A stretch of 20,000 nt of DNA from the IMG/VR virus record IMGVR_UViG_3300033463_000102; one strand, written 5' to 3'. Below, in pieces: positions 6,950 to 12,734 of this stretch. The position numbers were made by a program, and so were the translations under genes. How positions within the stretch are numbered: the stretch's first letter is position 1; each line of letters starts with the position of its first letter. The notes beneath the pieces are model-generated. The model was not told the origin of the DNA. It saw only the letters and a program-made list of their open reading frames with translations, and did not search any database. Origin of the DNA: an uncultured virus (IMG/VR IMGVR_UViG_3300033463_000102) (taxonomy: Duplodnaviria; Heunggongvirae; Uroviricota; Caudoviricetes).

Positions 6950-7397
6950 TCTTTGCCTCCGTCGGTTCTGCCGAAGTAGAGGCCTTCACACTCAATCCCT
7001 TGTTCTTCTGGGCCCACCTTTCGCTATCCCTGCGTTCAAGAATCTGCAGGTATCTGAGGGCCCTCTTGTTGTCAGGGTTAAGCAACAGTTCCTTTGTCAG
7101 AAGCTGTCGCAACAGGAGCACTTTCTCCTCATAGTAGACAGCAGGAACCTTGTCGATGATAGTTCCTGCGGGAGCCCAGTGGAAAGCCACCTTGGCCCAA
7201 TCAGAAACATTGTCGCATGACAGAAGTGCAATGGTCAACTCTACGTTCGACTGGGGACAAACTAGACGATTAGCGCCTTCCGTGATAGTAGTGGAAAGCG
7301 TGACGTGCTTATAATTCATTTCAAGCCAACTCGTTAGAGTCGAGCCTGGATGTTCGGTGGCGAGTTGTGCCGCCTTCTTTTTTCCCAATCTTTTCAT
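6900..7397 (-). CDS. Probable terminase small subunit
   Basis: Immediately upstream of terL and overlapping it by 50 nt. C-terminal YLQILERRDSERW followed by a terminal beta-strand (IKLEFEIV) resembles TerS. Start re-called at the ATG at 7397 because the longer ORF overlaps 7438-7644. Confidence 0.6.
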   Translation of the reverse strand: MKRLGKKKAAQLATEHPGSTLTSWLEMNYKHVTLSTTITEGANRLVCPQSNVELTIALLSCDNVSDWAKVAFHWAPAGTIIDKVPAVYYEEKVLLLRQLLTKELLLNPDNKRALRYLQILERRDSERWAQKNKGLSVKASTSAEPTEAKNGSKEIKLEFEIVGGN

Positions 7398-7413
7398 ACT
7401 ATAAATAAGTAGA

Positions 7414-7432
7414 GCCGCCCATCGTGGGCGGC
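7414..7432 (-). terminator. GC-rich hairpin followed by a T-rich tract
   Basis: Minus strand reads GCCGCCC-ACGAT-GGGCGGC then TCTACTTATTT, just after the stop at 7438. Confidence 0.5.
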
Positions 7433-7437
7433 CTTGC

Positions 7438-7644
7438 TTACCGAGCCTTGCGCTGTCTTGCGTACATCGTATCGAAAGGGTTTCCGTTCGGATTCTTTCG
7501 GGGGATTTCCTCGACAACCCTTGGTGGGTCATCAGTAACCTGCATTGCCGACTCGGGCGCCTTGTCAATCTGGTCAGGCGGAGTCTGCAAGTCCAAAGGG
7601 TCGGTTTTCTTTACTGTCTTTTTCTTGGTCGGTTGCTTAATCAT
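7438..7644 (-). CDS. Small basic/disordered hypothetical protein (68 aa)
   Basis: ATG at 7644 with an AAGGAG RBS; begins MIKQPTKKKTVKK. Confidence 0.6.
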   Translation of the reverse strand: MIKQPTKKKTVKKTDPLDLQTPPDQIDKAPESAMQVTDDPPRVVEEIPRKNPNGNPFDTMYARQRKAR

Positions 7645-7819
7645 GGCTTTCTCCTTGTGGAATTTTGCCTGCTGCGGCATCTAACTCACAGCACACACAT
7701 TTCTGAGATGTTATTGACGACTTGTCGAGATAATATAACCCTACGCAAAGAATAAGGGCTAGCATAATTACGATACCCCAAAGAGCTGCTGCAATCGATT
7801 CATTGGATTCCGTTTTCAT
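7637..7819 (-). CDS. Small single-TM membrane protein (60 aa)
   Basis: ATG at 7819 with a GGAGG RBS. Hydrophobic stretch IAAALWGIVIMLALILCVGLYYL and a CVCC motif. Confidence 0.6.
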   Translation of the reverse strand: MKTESNESIAAALWGIVIMLALILCVGLYYLDKSSITSQKCVCCELDAAAGKIPQGESHD

Positions 7820-8240
7820 CGTCGTCCTCCACATATGCAGTAACCGAAATGACTTTCTTAAATTCCAGCTCATTTCCCGCCTGCCGTATTAGCTTTAATA
7901 CAGTCGGCTGGACAAGGTGAGTATGAAGTTCATCCAAGTCCTTGGTCGCAAAATTCATTTCTCCGATTTGGATGTTGTAGACGTGATTTTCTCCATTCTT
8001 AGTCTTTACCGTCATGACTACCTTAAACGGACCATCTATATCGCATTGCTTTTTGTTCAGGTATTCCGTCATTGCTTCTGCGGGAGCCTCGCAATAGTAA
8101 GTCGTGGTAAGCTCCTGCCCTTCAAGAGGAACTCTAGTACACCAAGACTTATAGCCTTCATGATGCTTGGGATTCTCCGCAACCAGCAAATTAGGGGCCC
8201 ACCAAAAAGCCTTATCTACTGTAATTTCTGATGATTTCAT
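7800..8240 (-). CDS. Hypothetical protein (146 aa)
   Basis: ATG at 8240 has an AGGAG RBS. An in-frame upstream ATG at 8327 also exists. Confidence 0.7.
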   Translation of the reverse strand: MKSSEITVDKAFWWAPNLLVAENPKHHEGYKSWCTRVPLEGQELTTTYYCEAPAEAMTEYLNKKQCDIDGPFKVVMTVKTKNGENHVYNIQIGEMNFATKDLDELHTHLVQPTVLKLIRQAGNELEFKKVISVTAYVEDDDENGIQ

Positions 8241-8256
8241 AACTACTCCTATCTGG

Positions 8257-8285
8257 AAAGAAAGCCCACGGGTTCCCCCGTGGGC
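8257..8285 (-). terminator. Intrinsic terminator
   Basis: GCCCACGGG-GGAA-CCCGTGGGC (perfect 9-bp stem, GNRA loop) followed by TTTCTTT. Confidence 0.8.
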
Positions 8286-8333
8286 CCTTGATGAGTTAGC
8301 TTGACTTTTTAGAGTAACAACCCGCATGGGCCT

Positions 8334-8361
8334 AGTTTATCCTTTTTTTCCTTCCATGCAA
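8334..8361 (-). promoter_or_regulatory. Sigma70-like promoter
   Basis: TTGCAT-16 nt-TAAACT; same -10 hexamer as the promoter at 9477-9505. Confidence 0.5.
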
Positions 8362-8464
8362 GTTGTTGACCCTAGTGGACAGATGGGTGAAACTGATAGC
8401 ACACATTTGTTGAAGAAAACCCCATCTGCCCGCTAGGGCCCAGCCCGAAGGCTGAACCCACAAC
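8362..8464 (-). ncRNA. Candidate structured ncRNA of unknown family
   Basis: A C(UUCG)G-capped 10-bp hairpin (8436-8459), a ~20-bp stem (8368-8387 with 8421-8440) enclosing a 33-nt loop, and a GUUGU/ACAAC closing pair. G-U pairs favour the minus strand. Confidence 0.6.
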
Positions 8465-8530
8465 AGGTAGGTTAACATGAACAATAAGTAGCCTGTCTAT
8501 TTTAAGCCAGTCAGGCAAGTTGGCTGTTAG

Positions 8531-8659
8531 GTGTGATGGCAGGGTTCGAACCTACAACATCGGGATTACAAATCCTAAGTAACCCGCCCTGTCGCAACCA
8601 TTTCAGGAGAAAAGGCGGACGGGTAACATTCCGTGCTCTACCAGTTGAGCTACATCACA
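8531..8659 (-). tRNA. tRNA-like gene with UGU (Thr) anticodon and a 56-nt insertion in the anticodon stem
   Basis: Acceptor TGTGATG/CATCACA, D arm GCTC-AACTGGTA-GAGC, T arm GTAGG-TTCGAAC-CCTGC, anticodon loop TT-TGT-AA. Removing 8576-8631 leaves a canonical 73-nt cloverleaf with stem CGGGA/TCCCG. Confidence 0.85.
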
Positions 8660-8669
8660 CTTTTAATAA

Positions 8670-9395
8670 CTAGAACGGGAGGTCCGAGTCTTCGAAGCTA
8701 GTAGCACTCGTTGCTGCAGCCTGTTCCATCAATTGCTTCTTGGCAGTGGAGCCCTTCGGCAATGCCGGGGGAGCAGTCTTTGCCTTCTGCTGTTCTTCGG
8801 CAGGTTCGGAAGACTCTTCCTTTGCACGGATGCCGATGCCATCAGCCAACTTATAGTCAAGGGCTTCTGAAAGCATCCATTCAGGAATATCGTCGATACC
8901 GACTTCCTTTGCAGTCTTTGAAGCAGGAGAGATGCTTACGATGTCATTGAAGGTCTTTCCTTTCTTGGAAGTGACCTGATTGACCATAAGGCGACCCTTC
9001 TTGCCGATGAACTTGCTGACATCGAAATGGGCACCGTTTTCGTCAGTGACGAGAAGTCCGCCCTTTTTCAGGATATCAACGATGGTCGGCCAATCCGTCT
9101 TGTTGAACCACTTGGAAATTTCCTTGCGGAACACCGAGCGTTCATCAGCACAAATCTTCCAGCGCTTGCCGAGAAGACTATGCACGAGGCCTTCGCTGTC
9201 TGCGAGCTGCCAAATGAGCTGGATTTTCGGGCCATGGTCATCGCCTTCGAACACATGGGGCTTGATGACATAGCCACGGACGACTGCATCATAGACTCCT
9301 TCTTCGAGCAGGAACTTGGATGTGGTTTCCCCGCTTTCGAATGCTGCGAGTTCTTCTTCATTGAGGTCTAGTCCGAGATTGATTTCGTTACTCAT
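8670..9395 (-). CDS. Single-stranded DNA-binding protein-like (phage SSB)
   Basis: ATG at 9395 with an AGGAG RBS. Beta-rich core starting EEGVYDAVV, a flexible tail and an acidic C-terminus ending EDSDLPF. Adjacent to primase and helicase. Confidence 0.75.
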   Translation of the reverse strand: MSNEINLGLDLNEEELAAFESGETTSKFLLEEGVYDAVVRGYVIKPHVFEGDDHGPKIQLIWQLADSEGLVHSLLGKRWKICADERSVFRKEISKWFNKTDWPTIVDILKKGGLLVTDENGAHFDVSKFIGKKGRLMVNQVTSKKGKTFNDIVSISPASKTAKEVGIDDIPEWMLSEALDYKLADGIGIRAKEESSEPAEEQQKAKTAPPALPKGSTAKKQLMEQAAATSATSFEDSDLPF

Positions 9396-9476
9396 ATTAT
9401 TACTCCTATTGAGATTGTTAGCACCAGCACGGTGGATTTCTGTGACGGGACGTGCCCCTTTCAAGTCTGTACCTAT

Positions 9477-9522
9477 AGTTTAGCATTTTTATCTTCGACT
9501 GTCAAGAGTTTTTTATAAAAAA
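9477..9522 (-). promoter_or_regulatory. Sigma70-like promoter with AT-rich upstream element
   Basis: TTTTTTATAAAA-AACTC-TTGACA-17 nt-TAAACT. Confidence 0.8.
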
Positions 9523-9538
9523 GCATGTTATTTTTTCT

Positions 9539-10378
9539 TTACATTAGTCTTGCAGCCATTCGCATGAATTCGTCTATGAAATCTGCCTCTACAGATTGAG
9601 CCAACCTTTCCACGCACATGAAGTCAAGTCCATGCCTTTTCAGGTAGGTAAGGATTTCGAACGATGTCCTGTTGCGTTCACCCTCGTGCATTTCACCGAG
9701 AGCCTTTTCGGCCCATCGGAGCATCCTTTCTTCCTCTTCCTTTTCTGTGACAGGATTGCCGTATTTCTTGTTGAACTCGGCGGCGGCATGCTGGAAGTCG
9801 ATTTCATTGTGGCCCCGTTCACGCTCGGCTTCAACCTTGTTCCAGTCAATTGAATATTTTGTCCCCTTGTTGTAGGCCCAACGATACGGCGACTTGGGTT
9901 CCCTTATGATGGGAATGAGCTGACAGTGGCCACGGTCGAAACAGGAAGGGTCACAGCCCCATTCGTTGACCATCGCCTTCTTGAAGTAGTAGTCCTGCAA
10001 GTCACAGTCCAACGGCTTGTCGAGCGGAAGGATTACACGGAAGCGGTCATGGTCTCCCTTGTAGGTATGGCTATGGCTCGTGTACAACGCATAGGACAGG
10101 CCCTTGTGGTCTGCTATCCATTCATCGACAGAGCACGAGGAATCATAGTCTATCTGCAAGAAGTAAAGGCTTGCAAGGTTTGCCCCGATATACTGGGCCT
10201 GCATAGTCACTGGATTGAGCACAGGATTGGCCACGAGCGTTCCGTAGATGCCAAGGGGAGCCTCTTCCTTGTTCGGGCATACAAATGGCTTCTTGATGAG
10301 TTCAAGCCACTTCTCTGCCGTAGGGCGCCAGTGCCACAGGCTTTTATCATAGAAGTGTTTTCTGATGAGGATATCCAT
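9539..10378 (-). CDS. AEP-superfamily primase/prim-pol with a PriCT-like C-terminus
   Basis: Motif I QIDYD, motif II YTSHSH, RFRVILPL, motif III region DPSCFD, and C-terminal GERN. GGAGG RBS. Confidence 0.8.
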   Translation of the reverse strand: MDILIRKHFYDKSLWHWRPTAEKWLELIKKPFVCPNKEEAPLGIYGTLVANPVLNPVTMQAQYIGANLASLYFLQIDYDSSCSVDEWIADHKGLSYALYTSHSHTYKGDHDRFRVILPLDKPLDCDLQDYYFKKAMVNEWGCDPSCFDRGHCQLIPIIREPKSPYRWAYNKGTKYSIDWNKVEAERERGHNEIDFQHAAAEFNKKYGNPVTEKEEEERMLRWAEKALGEMHEGERNRTSFEILTYLKRHGLDFMCVERLAQSVEADFIDEFMRMAARLM

Positions 10379-10386
10379 GTTGCCTC

Positions 10387-11883
10387 CTAGAATAGCACAG
10401 ACGTATCGCTGCTTTCAATAGTTGAGTCTTTCATCATCCGTTCAGAAACGGGAGCATCGTCGGTGTCAAAATCTACATAAATTTTCCCGTTCGGACCAGT
10501 GCAGTCAGGAAGGATATGCTGAACATCACGGGCGAAGTATTGCAGTGCCTTGCCCTTGTTTCCAGTTTCCTTGCACCAGTTCGAGTAGAAACGGAAAGCA
10601 CTTTCGAGCTTTGTCTTGCCGATGCGGAGGTTGACAGCATCGGCCCACATTTTCGTCGTAGTCTTCGTCGGGTAATAGCTTGCCTGAATTGCCTGAACTT
10701 GCTTGCCAACTTCCGTATCAGGGTCGAAGTAGCCATCATCCGAGTCTTCGTCAATGGACTTCCAGAAGTATATGGAATTGTCCAAGTACTTGTTGATTTC
10801 ATCAAAAGACTTCGGGCGTGTTCCAGTGCAGTTGAAGTCGAAGAAGCGGCGCATGGTGGTTTCGTCGTAGATGACATCGTAGAGGTGTTCATTAGCCGAG
10901 CTGATGCAGCTGAATGTAATCCTACGCTTTGCCTGTTCCTGAGTTCCGTAAACACGGGCATCCATCTTGTCGCCCGTGATGATGGATTTGAGGATTGCCT
11001 TCTGGTCAGCAGTAAGGCGCCCACCGCTAGTCTCTGATTCCACGTTCACGGCCATTTCATCGAAGATTAGGATGAAGTTTTCCGTGAGGCGCTTGATTTC
11101 CTTGGTATCATCGAAAAGCTTGGAAATGCTTGTCGTAGACGTAAAGTCCGTGAATGGAGATGAAATCTTGTTGAGGGCAGTTGTCTTGCCTATTCCAGCA
11201 GCGCCAAAGAAGTTCAGCCAGATGTGGTACTTTACAGGCCTGTCATTCATCTTGCGCTTCACCTGCCATGCCCAGTGCTTCATAAGAGTGGAAAAGATTT
11301 CATAGCTTTCAGTAGGCTTAAAGTATTCATAGATTGCTTTTAGCCAGCGTTCGCCGATAGCTTCACAGCGGGCATCGTATCTTACATTGTTAGATACAAT
11401 GGCAAGGCCATCCTGATACCCATGCATGGCCATGGTCTGCAAGGTGCTCTTGATGGCATCAGCTGTATAATGGCCCGCCCCGTTATAGATGTCGCTCATG
11501 ATGGCGACCCTGAGGTTATCTAGGTCTTTGTAGGTGGCAACGCCCAATGCTGTGTACTTGATTTCCTTCCATGCGGGGCTGATGTACCAGTCCCTTGAAT
11601 GGTCCTTTAACCATTTGGTAATGAATTCCTTTGGTGACGGCTGGTCTTCTTCATCTTCGTTGGATGGCCACTTCCTTTTCTGTTCATCCTTTACAAACTT
11701 TTCGATGTCTTCTAATTCAAGGGGAGCCCATGTTCCAGTACCTTCACGGAACCTTTTAAGTTTCATCCACTCTGTCCAGATAGTATCTACATCTGTCTTT
11801 CGTCTTCCTTTATCACGAAGTCCACCATTTTTCTGGACTTCATAGTTCTCCCCGAACCATTGTTTGAAGTGTTCATTAGTCAT
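10387..11883 (-). CDS. VapE/SF3-type P-loop helicase
   Basis: Walker A GAAGIGKT, Walker B ILIFDE, LKSIITG, motif C ISSAN, arginine finger MRRF, and a C-terminal winged-helix-like segment (FYSNWCKETG). Confidence 0.85.
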   Translation of the reverse strand: MTNEHFKQWFGENYEVQKNGGLRDKGRRKTDVDTIWTEWMKLKRFREGTGTWAPLELEDIEKFVKDEQKRKWPSNEDEEDQPSPKEFITKWLKDHSRDWYISPAWKEIKYTALGVATYKDLDNLRVAIMSDIYNGAGHYTADAIKSTLQTMAMHGYQDGLAIVSNNVRYDARCEAIGERWLKAIYEYFKPTESYEIFSTLMKHWAWQVKRKMNDRPVKYHIWLNFFGAAGIGKTTALNKISSPFTDFTSTTSISKLFDDTKEIKRLTENFILIFDEMAVNVESETSGGRLTADQKAILKSIITGDKMDARVYGTQEQAKRRITFSCISSANEHLYDVIYDETTMRRFFDFNCTGTRPKSFDEINKYLDNSIYFWKSIDEDSDDGYFDPDTEVGKQVQAIQASYYPTKTTTKMWADAVNLRIGKTKLESAFRFYSNWCKETGNKGKALQYFARDVQHILPDCTGPNGKIYVDFDTDDAPVSERMMKDSTIESSDTSVLF

Positions 11884-12256: not shown

Positions 12257-12263
12257 TTTCACC

Positions 12264-12309
12264 TTTTTTATAAAAGGTACTTGACAAGTGTAAACACTTT
12301 TGATATATT
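12264..12309 (+). promoter_or_regulatory. Rightward sigma70-like promoter with an overlapping palindromic operator
   Basis: TTTTTTATAAAA-GGTAC-TTGACA-17 nt-TATATT. The palindrome AAGTGT-AA-ACACTT lies at 12286-12299. Confidence 0.85.
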
Positions 12310-12341
12310 TATGGCATCAACACAAACACAAGAGGTAAACA

Positions 12342-12734
12342 ATGAACAATAAGGAAAACACATCCATCACAGAACTCCCTTTCCAGACTGGTCTCAAGAA
12401 GTTCCTGAACCGCAAGGGTCTCACCCAGAAAGCACTGGCCGACAAGATTTACGTCTCGTCATGCACGGTATCACAGTGGACTCGTGGCAGCTATGACCCT
12501 AGCGTGACAGTCTCCCTGCTCATTCTGGAAGGCATGACGCTCGAAGAAATCTTCGGTGCGGACGTGATGGACAAGATTCTTGAAAACGAGAAGGAAAGCA
12601 CCAACGCAATCCTTCGCCACATCAACGCACAGTCCTCGCCCAAGAAGGAAGAACCCAAGAAGGAAACGAGGGCCGAGAAACAGAAAGCTGGCTTCATGAG
12701 CCGTCTGACCATGCTGTTCAGCGCAAAGAGGTAA
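12342..12734 (+). CDS. XRE-family helix-turn-helix regulator
   Basis: KGLTQKALADKIYVSSCTVSQWTRG..DP pattern. GAGGT RBS. Confidence 0.9.
   Translation: MNNKENTSITELPFQTGLKKFLNRKGLTQKALADKIYVSSCTVSQWTRGSYDPSVTVSLLILEGMTLEEIFGADVMDKILENEKESTNAILRHINAQSSPKKEEPKKETRAEKQKAGFMSRLTMLFSAKR

Follow-up and report, generated by a model that had tools for sequence, protein, structure and literature searches.

What is the structured RNA that lies at the boundary between the early and the late genes of this phage, and what might it do there? The window, i.e., the whole 20,000-nt stretch of viral record IMGVR_UViG_3300033463_000102 that was analysed, belongs to a phage and carries nearly all of its genes on the minus strand, and the structured RNA occupies a gap between the replication genes and the packaging genes. 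A first-pass annotation of this DNA had pointed to a UUCG hairpin and a stem of about 20 bp displaying a 33-nt loop, and had inferred an uncharacterised sRNA. The surrounding features, in minus-strand reading order, are the following:

Upstream part, minus-strand order: tail-type genes, an HNH protein, glycosyltransferases, a divergent HTH repressor, and then the VapE-type helicase
10387-11883, minus-strand order: VapE-type helicase
9539-10378, minus-strand order: primase
9477-9505, minus strand: candidate sigma-70-like promoter, TTGACA-17-TAAACT with TG upstream, ahead of the 264-aa ORF, 10/12 consensus matches
8670-9464, minus strand (9464-8670): 264-aa ORF, preceding the tRNA-like gene
8669-8241: gene-free gap of 429 nt, holding the tRNA-like gene and the structured RNA
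8240-7800, minus strand: 146-aa ORF with its start codon at 8240, then two small ORFs
6949-5615, minus strand: large terminase, followed by a portal-like protein

The gap is unchanged in G001, a 36,489-bp viral record rated complete that shares 98-99% identity with the window over most of its length, and the sequencing runs that hold this stretch are labelled bovine gut metagenomes. The terminase shows at most 27.5% identity to its four tblastn hits in a phage collection, and the gap, searched as a 451-nt sequence, had no blastn match in 50,697 phage records. Neither Pfam nor PHROGs returned anything for the 146-aa, 78-aa, 222-aa, and 264-aa ORFs, the ESM Atlas gave nothing for the neighbouring proteins, and an AlphaFold model of the 146-aa protein (pLDDT 71) had weak matches only, to the little-finger domain of Y-family polymerases (best E 2.2e-3). 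In the rest of G001, neither an integrase nor an RNA-processing enzyme was recognised. The phage is also one without a recognisable late regulator. As promoter-like sites in the window are no commoner than in shuffles, the promoter candidate at 9505-9477 is treated as a lead only. Among the relatives described below, the gene upstream of the gap is of three unrelated kinds, two of which end in DLPF, an acidic tip of the type borne by bacterial SSB proteins. The tRNA-like gene always begins about 10 nt past the stop codon of that gene, which argues that tRNA and structured RNA are co-transcribed with it.

The structure that raised the question consists of two hairpins in the minus-strand RNA:

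8436-8462, minus strand: hairpin 1, formed by GGGUUCAGCC (8459-8450), UUCG (8449-8446), and GGCUGGGCCC (8445-8436), with a C(UUCG)G cap
8440-8433 with 8375-8368, minus strand: base of hairpin 2, GGCCCUAG/CUAGGGUC, hairpin 2 as a whole spanning 8368-8440
C8432 with A8376, minus strand: conserved mismatch between the base and the upper stem of hairpin 2
8431-8421 with 8387-8377, minus strand: upper stem of hairpin 2, GGGCAGAUGGG/CCCAUCUGUCC
8420-8388, minus strand: loop of hairpin 2, 33 nt

The core of hairpin 1 is CAGCC/GGCUG (8454-8450 with 8445-8441), and it can be extended to 10 bp (8459-8436) or, if a U is bulged, to 12 bp (8462-8434). RNAfold gives the 121 nt from 8475 to 8355 on the minus strand a minimum free energy of -52.7 kcal/mol, compared with a mean of -33.9 for 200 dinucleotide shuffles, none of which folds as well (z -5.64). 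The opposite strand folds at -46.8 kcal/mol, 5.9 worse, consistent with the presence of four G-U pairs, which become A-C on that strand. The first-pass annotation had thus described the sequence correctly with regard to the UUCG hairpin, the long stem (19-20 rungs) with its 33-nt loop, the four G-U pairs, and the five nucleotides, 8436-8440, for which the two helices compete. Its placing of the structure at the RNA level, on the minus strand, agrees with the fold score, the weaker fold of the opposite strand, and compensatory changes among relatives. It had also closed the whole by GUUGU/ACAAC; this pairing is possible in the window (8464-8460 with 8366-8362), but on reading the relatives it is not conserved.

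Relatives were sought by protein-guided and motif scans, which located the element in 6 contigs of viral origin and 9 from metagenomes. On the viral side, three motif scans gave 6 contigs of 4 types, while a looser gapped pattern gave 65 loci, all of which except the 6 family contigs were judged to be chance; one motif scan of metagenome contigs gave 11 loci, comprising nine of the family and two by chance (L085 and L090). Protein-guided scans with the two flanking genes recovered the same contigs. The sole motif match in 185,579 species genomes, L093 in an Actinomycetes MAG, turned out on reading to be another chance match and was dropped. Together, these contigs provide nine distinct variants, i.e., the window type, L086, L010, L088, L084, L087, L089, L091, and L092. 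All nine are related sequences from one small phage clade, so the number of independent events is overstated in every conservation and covariation count given here, and shared gene order is not independent evidence. The module is borne by a small group of cattle-rumen phages.

Within this clade, both hairpins are kept in all nine variants by compensatory changes. In A5, an alignment made with a covariance model (CM), 95.6% of cells pair if hairpin 2 is complete and 97.5% if hairpin 1 is long, a count that took in only the first four pairs of the hairpin 2 upper stem; A5 misregisters this stem in the variants where it has 10 bp, and the stem was counted separately by script. Twelve pairs in A5 changed on both sides, none of 500 shuffles reached the observed pairing or covariation score, and pairing fell to 25-56% when the partner columns were slid. 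RNAalifold on a plain MAFFT alignment returned the same hairpins, with compensatory change in 13 of 32 pairs. Two of the five pairs in the hairpin 1 core covary (AU in six variants and CG in two; CG in six and GC in three), and the long form of hairpin 1 pairs in 99.1% of cells, its outer part never mispairing. The upper stem of hairpin 2 has been rebuilt between lineages, being GGGCAGAUGGG/CCCAUCUGUCC in the window versus GGGUGGCGGG/CCCGCCACCC in L086, with GGGAGUCCAUGG/CCUUGGGCUUCC in L010, GGGAGUCAAGGG/CCUUUGGCUUCC in L084, and GGGAGUCCGGGG/CCUCGGGCUUCC in L091. Several of the double changes separate close relatives (L010, L084, and L091) and are hard to explain without a helix. Despite this turnover, the whole helix of hairpin 2 measures 19-21 rungs in each of the nine variants, and its 1x1 mismatch is fixed as C.A (U.A in L092); the base carries an extra, uncompensated C.A mismatch in five variants. 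The apical loop, 20-34 nt long, is conserved, and its 5' half (UUUCUUCAAC.AAUGUGUGC) is kept in six of nine. Whether relatives show a conserved stem with a varying loop had been proposed as a check, and the reverse is seen.

The pair of hairpins is the 3' part of a larger module, in which a tRNA with an insert is followed by an H-type pseudoknot and then by hairpins 1 and 2. The structured RNA core spans about 160 nt (8525-8368, minus strand) and is always fused to the 3' end of the tRNA. Its upstream parts are:

8531-8659, minus strand: tRNA-like gene with a 56-nt extra arm in the anticodon stem, at about 8631-8576
8491-8525, minus strand: H-type pseudoknot, beginning 5 nt past the tRNA discriminator
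8463-8490, minus strand: linker delimited in alignments A3 and A5, with conserved motifs UUCAUG and YUACCU

The tRNA-like gene matches the Rfam tRNA family (RF00005) at 42.7 bits with a 67-nt unaligned insert, and ARAGORN finds nothing in it. Matches above the gathering score were obtained for the window, G001, and six of the eight relatives scanned, the other two being assigned by alignment only. The anticodon loop in the window, UUUGUAA, is canonical, and the anticodon is UGU in two variants and GAU in seven. Across the nine variants, 97.3% of 261 cells in the tRNA and its insert pair, all cloverleaf helices reaching 100%. The two outer pairs of the anticodon stem are formed by the bases that flank the insert, the split pair 27-43 being GC in five variants and CG in four, and the insert itself forms a covarying stem of 7-8 bp with three pairs changed on both sides. 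A tRNA with such an insert precedes the module in nine of nine variants, with changing flanks, and among the matches listed by full-text literature searches no tRNA with a retained extra arm in the anticodon stem was found described for bacteria or phages.

The pseudoknot starts 3-5 nt past the discriminator in every variant. Its stem S1 pairs AGCCA (8525-8521) with UGGCU (8509-8505), and GUCG/CGAC takes their place in the L010 type, while stem S2 pairs GCCUG (8516-8512) with CAGGC (8495-8491) in the window and is formed by GGCCG/CGGCC, GCCUCG/CGAGGC, GUCCCA/UGGGGC, or ACCCUG/CAGGGU elsewhere. Changes on both sides occurred in three of five S1 pairs and in all six S2 pairs, with 95.6% and 96.1% of cells pairing, respectively, and RNAalifold found S2 unaided. 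The third loop is A-rich (UAAAAUAGA; AAAUAGA). In the linker that follows, UUCAUG lies at 8480-8475 (GUG in one variant, L092) and YUACCU at 8469-8465, and the length varies from 12 to about 55 nt.

The competition between the hairpins involves more than five nucleotides, as a shared segment of 9 nt, GGGCCCUAG, has two partners. Pairing with the upstream partner, CUGGGGUUC, creates a hairpin 1 of 12-13 bp and reduces hairpin 2 to its upper stem, giving two stem-loops one nucleotide apart. Pairing with the downstream partner, CUAGRRYY, leaves hairpin 1 with 5 bp, stacked on hairpin 2 in its complete form. The minimum-energy fold has the long hairpin 1 in L086, L087, and L088 and the full hairpin 2 in the window, L084, L089, and L091; when each state is forced, their energies lie 0.0-5.7 kcal/mol apart across the nine variants, four of which favour one side and four the other, with one tie. 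The three strands of this two-way pairing are almost invariant, as expected for a segment bound to satisfy two partners. The extra C.A mismatch at the base of hairpin 2 suggests that the second state may be weak in the five variants where a gene follows directly.

What follows the module divides the variants into two groups. In five of them (L086, L087, L088, L089, and L092), a GGAG-type ribosome site and the AUG of a homologue of the 146-aa protein lie about 15-25 nt past hairpin 2. In the remaining four (the window, L010, L084, and L091), the next gene lies beyond a third hairpin and an intrinsic terminator, which in the window are placed as follows:

8316-8367, minus strand: hairpin 3, AACAACUUGCAUGG/CCAUGCGGGUUGUU, with a purine-rich loop containing GGAUAAACUAGG, predicted in a 282-nt fold and present in four of nine variants only
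8255-8287, minus strand: intrinsic-terminator-like hairpin GGGCCCACGGG-GGAA-CCCGUGGGC followed by UUUCUUUCC, recognised from sequence and fold

In L010-type relatives, hairpin 3 reads as GACUCGCACA/UGUGCGGGUC and a different terminator stands at the corresponding place. The terminator-like hairpin of the window (8287-8255) was not called by a consensus scanner. Its tail is separated from the AGGAG ribosome site of the 146-aa ORF by about 15 nt, leaving no room for a promoter, so the late genes of the window would be reached only by read-through.

Evidence at the RNA level comes from contigs of relatives in RNA libraries, where DNA carry-over is possible. A 151-nt unitig from metatranscriptome run X24 is made up of 77 nt of the 5' part of a variant tRNA with its insert, 51 nt corresponding to 8581-8531, and 23 nt of Illumina adapter. 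The adapter abuts 8531, the discriminator, and the 128 nt ahead of it equal the length of an L088-type tRNA including the extra arm, which suggests that a tRNA-like RNA, stable and unspliced, was cut at the discriminator; that molecule bears no CCA. The depth of this unitig is 46, compared with 14 for the hairpin region. Other RNA contigs cover the hairpins and continue into a downstream gene, and a contig from run X23 is unbroken over the tRNA 3' end (8289-8581), indicating that processing there is at most partial. The RNA-run contigs, which are the material inspected here, show no ends inside the hairpin 2 helix. In the X23 contig, the adapter abuts 8289; this is a single contig, from which nothing is drawn.

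Several identities proposed for the hairpins, or suggested by their form, were examined. The element is uncharacterised, as had been stated: Rfam 15, with its tRNA-linked, T-box, riboswitch, ROOL, GOLLD, and ribozyme families, gave no match except the tRNA, at gathering score or at E<=10, the hairpins themselves yielding at E<=10 nothing but a 16-bit chance match to a microRNA precursor (gathering score 90). It is likewise not a simple terminator, as hairpin 2 lacks a U tract and is followed by AACAACUUGCAUGG, and the terminator-like hairpin with UUUCUUU is separate (8287-8255). A REP or other dispersed repeat was discarded, with model R1 finding one copy in G001 and one in the window, and otherwise its own reverse strand at 15.6 bits. 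The similarity in length to a CRISPR spacer that the first-pass annotation had seen in the loop found no counterpart in the DNA, where no CRISPR-like direct repeats occur in 7000-10000, and the loop is partly conserved. Its suggestion that the loop could act as an antisense or guide fares no better, since complements to the loop are no better than those of shuffled loops, 73% of which do as well at start sites and 60% window-wide. Nor does the element stand free, being the 3' part of a tRNA-pseudoknot-hairpin module and, in five of nine variants, the 5' leader of the next gene. A T-box-like codon-anticodon match between loop and tRNA fits three of six variants inspected, no better than chance, and was rejected. 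Attenuator pairings tried by eye met the same fate, as each fits some variants only: the shared segment with the 5' strand of the terminator, the 3' strand of hairpin 3 with the terminator, an upstream CUGGG with the ribosome site, GUUGU with ACAAC, and UUCAUG with the start codon. No conserved pairing of the freed strands with ribosome site or terminator was thus found among the candidates considered. A helix of about 20 bp, i.e., about two turns, with a small internal loop is typical of RNase III sites, and the 19-21 rungs in nine of nine variants agree with this description, making the helix a possible substrate and nothing more.

How, then, could the module work? The reading we favour, tentatively and with more doubt than conviction, is that it acts in cis, as leader and processing module of the late (packaging) genes. 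The module would be transcribed together with the upstream gene (the 264-aa gene in the window), whose stop codon lies about 10 nt from the tRNA in the sequence itself. Processing of the tRNA end may then cut at the discriminator, as suggested by the one RNA-library unitig of a relative that ends exactly there, and the pseudoknot, 5 nt further on, would become the 5' end of the downstream RNA, where it could shield this new end from 5'-end-dependent nucleases. Hairpins 1 and 2 would form a two-state device through the 9 nt GGGCCCUAG, given the computed difference of 0-5.7 kcal/mol between states. In addition, the helix of 19-21 rungs with its fixed C.A mismatch would suit a processing site of the RNase III type, judging from the established properties of RNase III substrates, or a protein operator. 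The state of the leader might finally set the stability and processing, and hence the expression, of the first late or packaging genes, which lie 15-25 nt past the helix in five variants and behind an extra hairpin and a read-through terminator in four. In favour of a cis-acting leader are the compensatory changes in every helix, the retention of the module as a unit while its flanks change, and the ribosome site and AUG directly after the helix in L086, L087, L088, L089, and L092. The X24 unitig ending at the discriminator argues for processing, and the near-isoenergetic states and the constant helix length under sequence turnover point the same way. Against it, the strong sequence conservation seen in hairpin 1 and CCUAGCGGG hints at specific recognition by a partner, for which a mere stabiliser would have no use.

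That conservation would suit contact with a protein or with RNA polymerase, and a real, if minor, possibility is a cis-acting RNA like HK022 put, EAR, or conAn2, in which the nascent two-hairpin RNA binds polymerase and carries it through the terminator at 8287-8255 and on through the late operon, the pseudoknot possibly being part of the polymerase-binding RNA. The element does lie just upstream of a terminator with no promoter room behind it in the window and L010-type relatives, heads packaging and structural genes among which no Q-like or other antiterminator protein was recognised, and in its long-hairpin-1 state presents two stem-loops one nucleotide apart, while the A-rich loop of the pseudoknot could form a triplex comparable to that of put. 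Yet no terminator lies close by in five of nine variants, the element exceeds put in size more than twofold and resembles it in hairpin number alone, and terminator-like hairpins in the late region number 18, against 18.2 in shuffles. The two-hairpin state itself is the minimum-energy fold in three variants and within 5.7 kcal/mol of it elsewhere, and a terminator follows in four. Where the terminator is present, it could instead define the 3' end of a trans-acting sRNA or protein sponge, whose 5' end would arise by tRNA 3' processing from a tRNA-sRNA precursor (about 275 nt in the window) and which would act through its exposed loops. This has a small but appreciable probability: in four variants the RNA lies between the tRNA and an intrinsic terminator that is preceded by an A/U-rich stretch, the large loop has a pyrimidine-rich motif, UUUUCUUC, similar to UUUUCUCC in the loop of the tRNA extra arm, the hairpin 3 loop reads as purine-rich with two GGA, RNA-library contigs cover the region, and P1 C4, P4 CI, and 3'ETS-leuZ are precedents. 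In the other five variants, however, the RNA lacks a terminator at its 3' end and continues into the next gene, and the window offers the loop no better target than it offers shuffled loops.

The similar pyrimidine motifs in the two loops also bear on whether the trailer RNA and the arm-retaining tRNA are partners, forming one particle or a decoy pair, e.g., by binding the same factor through UUUUCUYC loops. The tRNA apparently remains unspliced, as an RNA of 128 nt, and co-occurs with the hairpins in nine of nine variants across changing flanks, but co-occurrence in one clade is weak evidence, no covarying pairs were found between the two RNAs, and L089, where a tRNA of the window kind stands beside a hairpin 2 of the L088 kind, shows no visible adjustment, which speaks against tight co-adaptation and makes such a partnership quite improbable. 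The position between replication and packaging modules, just ahead of the terminase genes, would fit a signal in the DNA (a packaging site, replication origin, or protein-binding repeat) with three CTAG-containing boxes as binding sites, and CCTAG, ACTAGG, and ACTAGG are invariant or nearly so. Yet the hairpins are kept by compensatory changes, for which a duplex binding site has no need, G-U pairs make the minus-strand fold 5.9 kcal/mol better than that of the plus strand, and the third box is absent in five variants, leaving this highly improbable. Hardly credible is a small protein or a leader peptide translated from the conserved AUG (8478-8476). This codon is AUG in eight variants and GUG in the ninth, and one frame through the hairpins is open in eight of nine, but ORFs meet hairpin 1 in three phases (phase 0 in three variants, phase 1 in four, and phase 2 in two), so the overlapping ORF that the first-pass annotation had set against its own reading is not a conserved protein. 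Starting from the AUG or GUG, the frames run from 13 codons to open and yield unrelated products, L087 and L088 differing by a 1-nt indel in the loop, and no ribosome site stands at the usual distance upstream. A bolder idea, to which we give a rather small probability, is that the module is an RNA-only late-gene switch and would represent a new class of polymerase- or ribosome-directed riboregulator, made in cis, whose two near-isoenergetic folds would flip to license read-through into the packaging genes or their translation and of which the unspliced, arm-bearing tRNA, with its similar pyrimidine loop, would be a part.

What would follow differs between these readings. Metagenomic phage genomes hold much unexplained intergenic sequence and few structured RNAs with comparative support, and the present element combines covariation in every helix with a pseudoknot, a two-state segment, and a fixed tRNA partnership. 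If the element does control the early-to-late transition, it would be a control device of a rare, RNA-only kind and could offer synthetic biology a compact part; if it serves processing and stability alone, it would still show how phages employ the fold of a tRNA in cutting a polycistronic RNA and shielding the end so created. The RNA-only switch, if true, would add to put, EAR, and conAn2 a fourth RNA-based system of antitermination or licensing, as well as a natural 'tRNA scaffold' RNA.

Among known systems, neither Rfam nor the publications listed by our literature search included a family or publication matching the module. One of the closest is HK022 put, described in PMC9378689 as an RNA of about 70 nt with two stem-loops, stem I containing a minor-groove triplex, that binds the beta-prime zinc-binding domain of RNA polymerase and suppresses termination without protein factors. 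RNA-based antiterminators are rare according to PMC8191782, where put, EAR, and conAn2 are the only ones named. Compared by description, the present element shares with put the form of a structured nascent phage RNA in which two stem-loops adjoin, and a place before terminators and a long operon, but it is about 160 nt long rather than about 70, is fused to a tRNA, contains a true H-type pseudoknot, and lacks a nearby terminator in five of nine variants. A pseudoknot with an autoregulatory role is found at T4 gene 32, as cited in PMC10690425. Both are phage H-type pseudoknots beside an SSB-type gene, but the one described here comes after the SSB-like gene, with a tRNA in between, rather than occupying the gene's 5' leader.

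Other likenesses concern processing. Phage polycistronic mRNAs carry RNase III processing hairpins, such as the T7 R sites, the lambda N leader, and sib, which resemble hairpin 2 in being intercistronic helices of about two turns with a small internal loop between gene blocks. The present element differs in being far more conserved in sequence and in having a conserved loop of 20-34 nt and a competing upstream hairpin. Precursors of the tRNA type include C4 of P1 and P7, CI of P4, and E. coli 3'ETS-leuZ, as well as the stable species 1 and 2 RNAs of the T4 tRNA cluster; P1 C4 and P4 CI are cut out by RNase P, and 3'ETS-leuZ is a trailer sRNA. In these, too, a non-coding RNA is joined to a tRNA or tRNA-like fold and tRNA-processing enzymes set one end, but the module described here has no antisense target in the window and runs on into mRNA in most variants. 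ROOL and GOLLD are large, ornate phage RNAs often found beside tRNA genes, and ROOL was first seen in rumen data. The likeness extends to a phage-borne structured RNA beside a tRNA in rumen samples, but there is no Rfam match to either, and the module is several times smaller and of another architecture. In kind, the module thus resembles known phage leader RNAs and tRNA-linked RNAs, and what is new is the way its parts are combined, the two-state segment built into it, and its partnership with a tRNA whose anticodon stem keeps an extra arm.

The tRNA that opens the RNA module carries a structured extra arm, and its loop motif recurs further along the module. The RNA features lie in the window as follows.

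8659-8531, minus strand: tRNA with a 56-nt structured insert in the anticodon stem
8625-8590, minus strand: pyrimidine-rich motif, tRNA extra arm
8420-8410, minus strand: pyrimidine-rich motif, hairpin 2 loop
8435-8433, 8374-8372 and 8334-8332, minus strand: UAG of the three conserved CUAG boxes

The insert is placed between positions 28 and 29, away from the usual intron site, and displays both covariation and conservation across the nine variants. The window and the variant L089 have a UGU anticodon, the remaining seven a GAU. U1-A72 forms the outermost pair of the acceptor stem, and the gene does not encode CCA. ARAGORN detected the insert-bearing tRNA in none of the nine variants. It appears from one RNA-library unitig that this tRNA stays unspliced and persists at a length of 128 nt.

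In all variants, the same pyrimidine-rich motif occurs in the extra-arm loop (CUUUUCUCCU) and towards the 5' side of the hairpin 2 loop (GUUUUCUUC). The loop of hairpin 3 (GGAAGGAAAAAAAGGA; GGAGAUGGA in the L010 type, which has a terminator after hairpin 2) is the purine-rich complement of this motif. It is also reminiscent of a ribosome-binding site or of paired GGA sites. In the window, UAG stops from the CUAG boxes cover all three minus-strand reading frames, yet this coverage may lack meaning, as the odds of it arising by chance are about 2 in 9.

L089 (1428-1634, minus strand) looks like a recombinant, with a tRNA resembling those of the window and the variant L092 and a hairpin 2 resembling that of the variant L088. 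Its hairpin 1 has one mismatch, located at the junction, and an insert of ~35 nt repeating GAACA(U)ACCCUCAU separates the pseudoknot from hairpin 1.

The motif scan also returned chance matches in seven unrelated viral contigs (L038, L039, L041, L053, L056, L067, and L069), which have a near-identical stretch of ~110 nt in common. Inside it, a 7-nt patch varies between contigs (GCGCCGG, ACTGGGG, GCGGGGG, ACTGTGG, GCGGTGG) and looks like a localised hypervariable site.

Window positions 12258-12460 span both ends of the closely related 36,489-bp viral record G001, so the phage genome is circular or circularly permuted. At its end, G001 repeats a portion of the helicase gene (window 11016-11644): these last 630 bp are a second copy with 82% identity.

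The following ORFs flank the RNA in the window or in its relatives.

Window 8670-9464, minus strand: 264-aa ORF ahead of the tRNA, ending in DSDLPF
L092 441-1211, minus strand: upstream ORF, ending in DDDLPF
Window 7800-8240, minus strand: gene of a 146-aa protein, after the RNA in all variants

The DDDLPF-ending upstream ORF, found in L089 and L092, is unrelated to the 264-aa ORF, and neither matched Pfam or PHROG. Both endings are of the acidic-tip kind known in bacterial SSB proteins. No family was assigned to the 146-aa protein; its structural model (pLDDT 71) contains a C-terminal alpha-beta-beta-alpha-beta domain that weakly resembles the little-finger domain with which Y-family polymerases bind DNA (Foldseek, best E-value 2.2e-3).
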